Shown: one piece after another, positions 44,668-61,636 of the stretch
Position numbering within the stretch: position 1 is the first letter of the stretch
How the letters are laid out: each line of letters begins with the position of its first letter
From: Vicinamibacterales bacterium
Lineage (GTDB): Bacteria; Acidobacteriota; Vicinamibacteria; Vicinamibacterales; CAZQMT01
Assembly: GCA_965197935.1 (NCBI GenBank)
Contig: CBDAOD010000002.1
Span: 1,218,849-1,282,848, forward strand
Direction of reading: 5' to 3'
DNA: 64,000 nt
Translations under genes and position numbers: made by a program
The notes under the pieces: generated by a model
What the model was told of the DNA's origin: nothing
The model's database searches: none
The model's input: only the letters and a program-made list of their open reading frames with translations

Positions 44668-44828
44668 TGCACCGCCGTCGAGATCCGGTCACGCCTCGAG
44701 CCCGGCAGCACACCCATCCGCGGCGTTGCCGCTCCTCGAAATACTCCCGGTATTCCTCGTCGCGGCGCCTTGCGCCTGGGCGCGCTGCGAACCCGATCCA
44801 TGACCGCATCTCGACGGCGGTGCACTAG
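44664..44828 (-). mobile_element. Core-bearing hairpin MITE, family B (copy B2)
   Basis: CTAGTGCACCGCCGTCGAGATCCGGTCACG ... GACCGCATCTCGACGGCGGTGCACTAG, with tip AATACTCCCGGTATT at 44740-44754. Confidence 0.85.
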
Positions 44829-44990
44829 CAGCCCGTGGTGAAAGTCCTGCGTCGCACAAAGGGCGGCGCTGCGCCCGGCTGGCGGGGCGCGAGGAGGAAA
44901 AATACCGGGAGTATTTGACCGACGAGCAACGCAGTCAGGCGGGATGCAGCGCTGGCCGACTGCAGCAGGGCTTTTACCACGGGCTGCTAG
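44825..44990 (+). mobile_element. Core-bearing hairpin MITE, family A (copy A3)
   Basis: Shares its left CTAG (44825-44828) with B2. CTAGCAGCCCGTGGTGAAAGTCCTGC ... GCAGGGCTTTTACCACGGGCTGCTAG, with tip at 44901-44915. The right CTAG holds the stop of the minus-strand PBP gene. Confidence 0.85.
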
Positions 44991-59359: not shown

Positions 59360-60274
59360 ATGCATCCGATCTTGGCGGTGGGGTCCGTGGCGTTCGACTC
59401 GATCAAGACGCCCTTCGGCGAGGCGTCTCGGGTGGTGGGTGGAGCGGCGACCTATTTCAGCGTGGCGGCCTCCTTCTTCACCGACGTCCGGATGGTGGCG
59501 GTCGTGGGTGAGGACTTCGGCGACGAGCAGCGACGCGTGTTCGGCGGCCGACGGATCGACCTGGCCGGGCTACAGACCGTGCCGGGGCATACGTTCCGGT
59601 GGAAAGGGGAGTACAGCTACGACCTCAACGCTCGCGAGACGATCTACACCCACCTCAACGTATTCGAGAAGTTCCGGCCGGCGATCCCGGCCGAGTACCG
59701 TGCCACGCCCTATGTCTTTTTGGGCAACATCCACCCCGTGCTCCAGGCCGAGGTCCTCGACCAGGTCTCCAGCCCGACGCTGGTGGCTGCGGACTCGATG
59801 AACTACTGGATCGAACGGACGCCCGACGAGCTGCGCGACGTGCTTGCGCGGGTGGACGTGCTGATCATCAACGACGCCGAGGCCAGGCAGCTCAGCGGGG
59901 AGCCGAACCTGGTCAAGGCCTCTCGAGTCATCCAGGACATGGGGCCCGGGCGGCTCGTCATCAAACGGGGAGAGTACGGCGTCCTGATGACACGCGAGAA
60001 CGGATTCTTCGCCGCGCCCGCCATGCCGCTCGAAGCGGTCTTCGACCCGACCGGGGCCGGCGACACGTTCGCCGGCGGCTTCATGGGCTACCTGGCCTCG
60101 CGCGGTGAGATCTCCGACGAGGTCCTGACGCAGGCGATCATTTACGGCAGCACGATGGCGTCGTTCGCGGTGGAGGACTTCAGCCTCGATCGCCTTCTCA
60201 GGTTGACTCCGCAGGAGGTCCGGTCCCGGTTTCGTGAGTTCAAGTGGCTGACCCACTTCGAAGACCATGCCTAG
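59360..60274 (+). CDS. PfkB family carbohydrate/nucleoside kinase
   Basis: MHPILAVGSVAFDSIKTPFG... and DPTGAGDTFAGGFMGYL (PfkB signature 2). An alternative GTG start is at 59318. Confidence 0.8.
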   Translation: MHPILAVGSVAFDSIKTPFGEASRVVGGAATYFSVAASFFTDVRMVAVVGEDFGDEQRRVFGGRRIDLAGLQTVPGHTFRWKGEYSYDLNARETIYTHLNVFEKFRPAIPAEYRATPYVFLGNIHPVLQAEVLDQVSSPTLVAADSMNYWIERTPDELRDVLARVDVLIINDAEARQLSGEPNLVKASRVIQDMGPGRLVIKRGEYGVLMTRENGFFAAPAMPLEAVFDPTGAGDTFAGGFMGYLASRGEISDEVLTQAIIYGSTMASFAVEDFSLDRLLRLTPQEVRSRFREFKWLTHFEDHA

Positions 60275-60875
60275 CGGCCGGGCACGGACGTTCTCCGTCA
60301 CCCCACGCCTTGCCGCGGGAGCCGCCGCGCATGGCAGGGTGCGAGGGGCGAGAACGGGCGCGTGGCTGGCGCTGCTGCTCGCGACCGTCCTGTGGACGGC
60401 GTCGCTCATCGCGGCCCCGTATCTGGCCGCCCATCCTGACGCCGCCGGCCTGGGCGTGAGGGCGGCGGCGATGGTCTATGTCCTCGCGGGCGCCGTCTGT
60501 CATCAGCGTCCCGACCGATCGTTTCACGCGTGGGGCGTGCAGCTGCCGGTTTGCGCCCGTTGCTTTGGGCTCTACCTAACGGTGCCCCTCGGCCTGCTGA
60601 TGGGGGGAGTGAGCGCCGGCTGGCCGTGGCGTCGCCTCCGTCGACGACCCCTAGCAGCCCGTGGTGACAATTCTGCATCGCACCAAGGGCGGCTCGGCGC
60701 CCGGCTGCCCGCCGCGCTCCTGCTCTTCTCGGCCGTCCCGACGGCCCTCACGGTGGCCGCGGAGTGGTCCGGGCTGGGCCAGCCGACCGACGTGACACGG
60801 GCCGCGGCGGCGGTGCCGCTGAGCGCGGCGGTGGGCTGGGTCGTTGCCGCCACGATCCGCGGACACCTGAGGTAG
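60267..60875 (+). CDS. DUF2085-like membrane protein containing an in-frame MITE arm fragment
   Basis: CHQRPDRSFHAWGVQLPVCARCFGLYL is the DUF2085 signature. The loop codons PLAARGDNSASHQGRLGARL are encoded by the family A arm fragment at 60651-60707. Confidence 0.7.
   Translation: MPSGRARTFSVTPRLAAGAAAHGRVRGARTGAWLALLLATVLWTASLIAAPYLAAHPDAAGLGVRAAAMVYVLAGAVCHQRPDRSFHAWGVQLPVCARCFGLYLTVPLGLLMGGVSAGWPWRRLRRRPLAARGDNSASHQGRLGARLPAALLLFSAVPTALTVAAEWSGLGQPTDVTRAAAAVPLSAAVGWVVAATIRGHLR
60651..60707 (+). mobile_element. Family A left-arm fragment (57 bp) embedded in a coding sequence
   Basis: CTAGCAGCCCGTGGTGACAATTCTGCATCGCACCAAGGGCGGCTCGGCGCCCGGCTG, compared with A3 CTAGCAGCCCGTGGTGAAAGTCCTGCGTCGCACAAAGGGCGGCGCTGCGCCCGGCTG. 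Confidence 0.6.
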
Positions 60876-61307: not shown

Positions 61308-61481
61308 ATGGTGAGCCATTTCCTGCTGCTGGCGCTGTTCTCGTTCTTCGTCTCGCTCATCTTCGCCGTGCTCACCCGCGACGATCCGGGTGACCAGCTA
61401 CGATTCGGCGCGCTCATGTTCGCGGGGCTGACGGGCAGCGCGATCGTCCTCGGCTGGCTGATGTTTCCCCTTCCACTCTAG
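61308..61481 (+). CDS. Hypothetical small membrane protein (57 aa)
   Basis: ATG at 61308. MVSHFLLLALFSFFVSLIFAVLTRDDPGDQLRFGALMFAGLTGSAIVLGWLMFPLPL. The TAG stop lies in the terminal CTAG of element E. Confidence 0.4.
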   Translation: MVSHFLLLALFSFFVSLIFAVLTRDDPGDQLRFGALMFAGLTGSAIVLGWLMFPLPL

Positions 61482-61636
61482 TGTCCTGTCACAGTAATTC
61501 GTGGAGTAAGTCCCGCCATCCCGCCTGGCAGCGTTGCTCGTCGCTCGAATACTCCCGGTATGCTCACTCCTCGCGCCTGGCCAGCCGGGCGCCGCGCACG
61601 GGACTTACTCTACGAATTACTGTGACAGGACACTAC
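61478..61636 (-). mobile_element. Core-bearing hairpin MITE, family E
   Basis: CTAGTGTCCTGTCACAGTAATTCGTGGAGTAAGTCCCG ... CGGGACTTACTCTACGAATTACTGTGACAGGACACTAC (right CTAG mutated to CTAC). Tip AATACTCCCGGTAT at 61548-61561. Confidence 0.8.

Follow-up and report, generated by a model that had tools for sequence, protein, structure and literature searches.

The window, a stretch of 64,000 nucleotides from a Vicinamibacterales genome (6.54 Mb in 3 contigs, 67% G+C; the window is C2:1218849-1282848), contains a gene for a membrane protein of the DUF2085 family. The open reading frame scores 49.2 bits against Pfam DUF2085 (PF09858; cut-off 25), which places it above the Pfam gathering score, and it carries the C-H-Q...C-x-x-C motif with C78, H79, Q80, C96 and C99 invariant; the part aligned to the Pfam profile reaches no further than residue 115 and stops short of the insert that is the subject of this analysis. 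Its neighbours are a gene for a pfkB-family kinase upstream and a gene for a DUF6677 membrane protein downstream. The pfkB-family gene itself ends in a C-TAG at 60270-60273, inside the DUF2085 start (ATGCCTAG), and thus has a gene-end CTAG without an element.

The DUF2085 gene contains, 3' of the Cys/His-motif helix and 5' of the C-terminal helices, a 57-nt segment, CTAGCAGCCCGTGGTGACAATTCTGCATCGCACCAAGGGCGGCTCGGCGCCCGGCTG, which is a fragment, not a complete member, of a hairpin repeat family that we call family A (Table 1). An HMM built from 138 full-length copies of the family aligns the segment with model positions 1-57 at 51 of 57 identities, i.e., 89% to the consensus (nhmmer E = 1.3e-12 in a local search, 1.4e-8 genome-wide). 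Its identity over the 57 nt is 87.7% to the reference copy A3 (44825) and 93% to its best genomic match (blastn E 4e-17), and the 17-nt terminus of the fragment, CTAGCAGCCCGTGGTGA, occurs 8 times in the window with up to 3 mismatches compared with 0.17 expected, a count that was reached in 0 of 100 shuffles. With the speed filters of nhmmer switched off, no other family A part was found within 600 nt of the fragment on either strand, and no remains of the right half were detected 3' of 60707; within 5 kb, the sole family match is a separate complete element at 61479-61635. As only 57 of the 166 nt are present, the fragment does not have the two arms that together make one long hairpin, its local RNA fold is no better than that of shuffled sequences (z = 0.16, compared with z = -11.2 for a full copy), and a promoter and terminator scan found neither a promoter-like nor a terminator-like site within it.

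Table 1. Features of the DUF2085 gene and of family A copies discussed in the text. Coordinates without a contig prefix are positions in the window.
Feature	Coordinates	Strand or orientation	Basis and remarks
DUF2085 membrane-protein gene, 202 aa	60267..60875	+	Pfam PF09858 E 7e-13; ATG overlaps stop of pfkB-family kinase gene
Motif CHQRPDRSF...PVCARC (C78, H79, Q80, R84, S85, C96, R98, C99)	60498..60563	+	Invariant columns in 35-sequence alignment; 5' of insert
Family A remnant, element positions 1-57 (left arm and core start)	60651..60707	+	nhmmer, blastn, ORF translation
CTAG element terminus, read CTA-G(CA)	60651..60654	+	Homology begins exactly here
C-terminal helices after insert, in frame	60708..60872	+	Keep P158, E166, R178, P184, L185
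Reference full-length family A copy A3, 166 nt, one long hairpin	44825..44990	+	RNA fold -113 kcal/mol, z = -11.2
Left-arm fragment, model positions 1-77, in frame in N-terminal domain of methylated-DNA-protein-cysteine methyltransferase gene ogt	C3:2270632-2270708	reverse	Coding-frame scan
Full 166-nt family A copy, in frame, 56 residues, in secreted protein of ~190 aa	C3:1769307-1769472		Coding-frame scan
Two arm fragments, in frame, in large membrane protein	C3:1324161-1324248, C3:1324802-1324864	opposite orientations	Scan
Weak family A match, model positions 10-71, in linker between B12-binding and radical-SAM domains of B12/radical-SAM enzyme	C3:2217185-2217246		22 bits

Because codon 129 begins at position 60651, the terminal CTAG is read as CTA-GCA after CCC, and the whole fragment is read in frame as codons 129-147, encoding the 19 residues LAARGDNSASHQGRLGARL. 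The initial annotation, made from the letters alone, had described this arrangement: a match to the left arm and core start of family A, an in-frame reading through CCC-CTA-GCA without a stop in the open reading frame, a position between the Cys motif and the last helices, and absence of the remaining element. Each of these points was borne out, with the peptide encoded as it had been given. The six differences of the fragment from the consensus are spread evenly over the three codon positions (2, 2 and 2) and five of them are non-synonymous, which fits neutral drift. Full copies differ from the consensus at a median of 4 of the same 57 positions and 38% of them at six or more, so that the six differences of the fragment are unremarkable by comparison.

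The window holds several elements of 160-175 nt bounded by CTAG, A3 among them. A blastn search of the whole genome with A3 gave 440 matches and, after overlapping palindromic double matches had been dropped, we counted 144 full-length copies and ~220 partial matches. The repeat is small, non-coding, multi-copy and equipped with terminal inverted repeats (inverted arms of ~26 nt), and nearly all full copies have CTAG at both ends, compatible with a duplication of either TA or CTAG. A full copy had no Rfam match at E up to 1. Of 41 genomes from the same order, 27 carry full-length 166-nt copies at 79-91% identity (e.g., loci L044-L048 and L050-L054), and the exact 27-nt arm was found in several Vicinamibacterales MAGs. 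Family A is a MITE-like non-autonomous element of Vicinamibacterales. It keeps its length and this level of identity across families of the order, where orthologous proteins share 40-63% (about 50%), a conservation that reflects either horizontal spread or strong constraint.

Insertion of a full copy at a CTAG/TA site lengthens the target by a net 162 nt, or 54 codons, and the net length is a multiple of three in 118 of 140 full copies (lengths 166, 178 and 190). The consensus is free of stops in the CTA-GCA frame in both orientations (+0 and -0) and has stops in the other four frames; both CTA-first frames are also open in four of five distinct copies checked from other genomes of the order. 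The DUF2085 gene uses an open frame of the family. By our estimate, open frames and a 3n length are not unlikely to arise by chance at 67% G+C (~0.28 per frame over 55 codons).

Homologues of the DUF2085 protein were found in 25 of the 41 same-order genomes, the closest being 53% identical. In a collection of 5.8 billion proteins the closest DUF2085 match was 49% identical by BLASTP and 56% identical in a multiple alignment, the named matches being Vicinamibacterales. Neither the 41 genomes nor the protein collection contained a close relative with an empty site or a full insertion; a search of a genome contig collection returned no relative, and a metagenome contig collection gave a single 37% match, unusable for the empty site. 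For a comparison of loop spacing we used 53 homologues, 19 of them genomic and 34 from the database. The query segment lies opposite a gap in nearly all of these sequences, and it is carried by none of the 53. The invariant residues Cys99 and Pro158 are separated by 58 residues in the query compared with a median of 38 (IQR 35-41) in the homologues, and removal of the 19 codons brings the query to 39. One of the 53 homologues has a spacing of 58 or more, and long loops also occur in 2 of 35 database and 1 of 19 genomic homologues, loop length being variable in the DUF2085 family; none of the longer loops resembles the element peptide. The alignment of homologues, which the initial annotation had named as a check, identifies the 19-residue loop as an insertion relative to every homologue examined.

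As family A is present in 27 of the 41 genomes and the DUF2085 genes there are without the segment, the element is the donor, in agreement with the earlier claim that the segment derives from the repeat family, and the sequence comparisons indicate that descent ran from element to gene. Similarity by chance, or derivation of the repeat arm from the DUF2085 gene, could draw only on the high G+C, which raises background similarity. Both are refuted by the E values of the genomic matches (1e-8 to 1e-17, with no shuffle reaching the observed count), by the homologue alignments and by the distribution of the family across the order, and we regard them as practically negligible.

The gene itself could be dead, or untranslated across the insert, with an open frame that reflects chance or recent inactivation; the Pfam match that stops at residue 115 and the replacement of a near-invariant Arg before the last helices by Ala149 would fit such a scenario. 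Against it, the 55 codons downstream of the insert retain the conserved residues (Table 1) with a GC3 of 0.95 (0.80 upstream of the insert), codon-position G+C is typical of coding sequence on both sides, the gene belongs to an operon-like row that is intact, its start overlapping the preceding gene, and a stop-free in-frame outcome has a prior of at most one third. An AlphaFold model calculated with the homologue alignment is also confident on both sides of the insert. Its mean pLDDT is 87, with values of 92 or more in most helices and 93-97 per 10-residue block over residues 151-200; pLDDT falls to 55-62 at residues 121-140, where residues 126-141 are modelled as coil, and the last element-derived residues open a helix at 142-155. 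A structure search of the PDB with this model gave no match below E 0.1. The insert is predicted to be a low-confidence, disordered loop in an otherwise confident fold, the gene looks intact, and a dead gene appears very improbable to us. The element supplies an Arg146 one helical turn before the Ala at 149; this may be coincidence, a more speculative possibility being that Arg146 substitutes for the conserved Arg absent at 149. Nothing suggests a function of the 19-residue insert. That the segment is element-derived and part of an intact gene we consider very probable.

Our preferred reading, with a probability of about 0.8, is that a full family A copy inserted into the gene, was trimmed in frame and persists as a tolerated, translated loop. 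A 166-nt copy bounded by CTAG would have entered the loop-coding part of the DUF2085 gene, the predicted empty site under CTAG insertion being ...CGACGACCC-CTAG-CC.... Stop-free in its orientation and adding 54 codons, this insertion would have left the gene open. Everything beyond element position 57 (tip, right half and right arm) would then have been lost in an in-frame deletion. The initial annotation had envisaged that a later deletion restored the frame; insertion of an element into the gene agrees with the sequence comparisons, whereas the restoring is not supported, since a full copy adds 162 nt with no stop in the frame used and would have left no frame to be restored, and since elsewhere in this genome a conserved gene is read straight through a full, in-frame copy. 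The gene thus probably stayed open throughout, and the deletion itself had to preserve the frame (105 nt if clean).

A possible route for this deletion is slippage between GGCTG repeats at element positions 53-57 and 158-162; the two copies are exactly 105 nt (35 codons) apart, and slippage between them would leave 57 nt. The junction reads GGCTG/CCCG, not the GGCTG/CTAG expected of a clean GGCTG-to-GGCTG deletion, and therefore two extra substitutions or a different end point would be needed. A GGCTG/CCCG junction at C2:859208 was considered as a parallel and discarded as coincidence. Long palindromes such as the full copy, with its predicted fold of -113 kcal/mol, are unstable in DNA. Elsewhere in the genome, at least seven left-arm matches end at positions 48-62 and continue into unrelated sequence, indicating that truncation is a usual fate of the element. 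Having lost its hairpin capacity, the remnant in DUF2085 would add 19 translated residues to the protein, in an unstructured, Arg-rich loop that joins two transmembrane helices, and would be tolerated rather than functional.

The same left-arm pieces would also suit a 57-nt piece that arrived already truncated, by abortive or one-ended transposition or by fragment capture in break repair, with no full copy ever present in the gene. A right junction without a trace of the right arm or a second CTAG is in keeping with this, and the remnant in ogt, where 10 nt of an opposite-oriented second arm follow, hints at complex rearrangements. Conversely, the homology on the left starts precisely at the terminus of the element, as expected of a joint made by a transposase, full copies can sit in frame in genes, and deletion can also account for the solo arms in intergenic sequence. 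The observations made here do not separate truncated arrival from full insertion followed by deletion; we judge arrival of a fragment with no full copy ever present to be rather improbable, and on the narrower question of full insertion and deletion as opposed to one-step arrival we lean towards the former.

A genome-wide search for further coding-region copies, also suggested in the initial annotation, was carried out by examining all 363 family matches for open frames that run across them and have coding-type G+C on either side, and about six of them lie in coding frames. This number is a lower bound because the census relied on codon-position G+C instead of a gene caller; in-gene copies are rare but recurrent, most copies being intergenic. 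In Ogt, the 24-residue block encoded by the arm is absent from 13 orthologues, the Methyltransf_1N domain has 91 residues versus 68 profile positions, and the fragment is followed by CTAG and then by 10 nt from the start of another arm, in forward orientation (CAGCCCGTGG), which creates a perfect palindrome of 24 nt. The full copy in the secreted protein is read through without a stop and separates a signal-peptide-like N-terminus (MMTKTVCASALALGLAVAP) from the mature part; in the orthologues of three genomes, signal peptide and mature part are adjacent and there is no copy. Neither this protein nor the large membrane protein, which carries a HPSHSESVAWISGR motif, has a Pfam match. In the large membrane protein, the second arm fragment is followed by CTAG, and the frame changes near C3:1324380, between the two fragments, owing to either a pseudogene or an assembly indel. 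The weak match in the B12/radical-SAM enzyme may be an older remnant or a chance similarity; the enzyme is intact-looking.

In PMC10969869, Rickettsia palindromic elements (RPEs; Ogata et al. 2000/2002) are described as inserting in frame into unrelated protein genes. Like family A, RPEs are non-autonomous palindromic repeats of small size that contain an open frame, add a peptide segment at fold-compatible sites and affect several genes per genome, and the DUF2085 insert shares with them a location in frame within a conserved ORF and absence from orthologues. In contrast to RPEs, the DUF2085 copy consists of one arm only (57 of 166 nt) and its palindrome is gone, a whole palindrome being retained within an ORF in the secreted-protein gene. 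The host here is a free-living member of the Acidobacteriota with a G+C content of 67%, and family A is CTAG-bounded, mostly intergenic and unrelated to RPEs in sequence. Intragenic ERIC, BOX, Anabaena MITEb/e and QMITE1 elements, which can be read through and form translational fusions with host ORFs according to the same source (PMC10969869), are likewise MITE-type repeats, but the reports concern whole elements, whereas the DUF2085 insert, found in another phylum, is a one-arm relic that reveals its origin only when compared with the repeat family. The DUF2085 case is real but has precedent, with RPEs, by analogy, as the closest known parallel, and because in-frame insertions of MITEs and RPEs are already established it opens no new question.

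On our reading, the locus documents the passage of a hairpin repeat into ordinary coding sequence in a free-living soil acidobacterium, by in-frame entry, loss of the palindrome and drift as a loop. Such relics are recognisable only by comparison with the repeat family, and without that comparison the 19 residues would be annotated as a loop specific to the lineage. The genome offers a series in which the full copy in the secreted protein would represent an earlier stage, with Ogt and the large membrane protein as arm-fragment cases. The length fixed at 3n+4, the open arm-first frames and the high identity across the order could even mean that family A and its sister hairpin repeats are coding-competent mobile elements in the RPE sense, repeatedly donating loop peptides, an idea that we put forward as doubtful. 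Under such coding competence, single-arm remnants such as that in DUF2085 might be the stable end state after palindrome resolution, which is equally speculative.

IS630/Tc1-type MITEs duplicate the TA inside CTAG, and family A resembles them in its terminal inverted repeats and in the CTAG at both ends of full copies. The genome contains 73 IS630-type DDE_3 matches (e.g., C3:2967293 and C1:70200), among them nine identical, internally deleted copies, and CTAG stands at both ends of all aligned copies of the main IS630 element (two sets, of 5 and 9 copies). The ends of this element, GTGTAGTGTCCC and GGGACACACCAC, are unlike the family A arms and resemble those of the element at 61479-61635; being unrelated in its ends, the IS630 element was rejected as the autonomous partner of family A. 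A paired-arm search of the genome found no autonomous element with family A arms and gave only nested copies and a unique two-gene locus. The 1.7-kb stretch between A-arm pieces at this locus was rejected as an autonomous element, as it holds a unique blaI/blaR1-like pair and no transposase. The pair (C2:1553606-1555331) is bracketed by a left-arm and a right-arm piece in matching orientation, which could be two scars or a composite.

The element at 61479-61635 is a complete hairpin with another arm family (TAGTGTCCTGTCACAG...) and has the core in common with family A. The spacer that follows the DUF6677 gene is taken up by this element, which also extends over the initial 34 codons of a mechanically called VanZ ORF (TTG at 61534); the true VanZ start probably lies further downstream. 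Genome-wide, CTAG is strongly depleted, with 3337 sites amounting to 0.17 of the mononucleotide-based and 0.45 of the trinucleotide-based expectation, and GATC and TCGA are about three-fold enriched.
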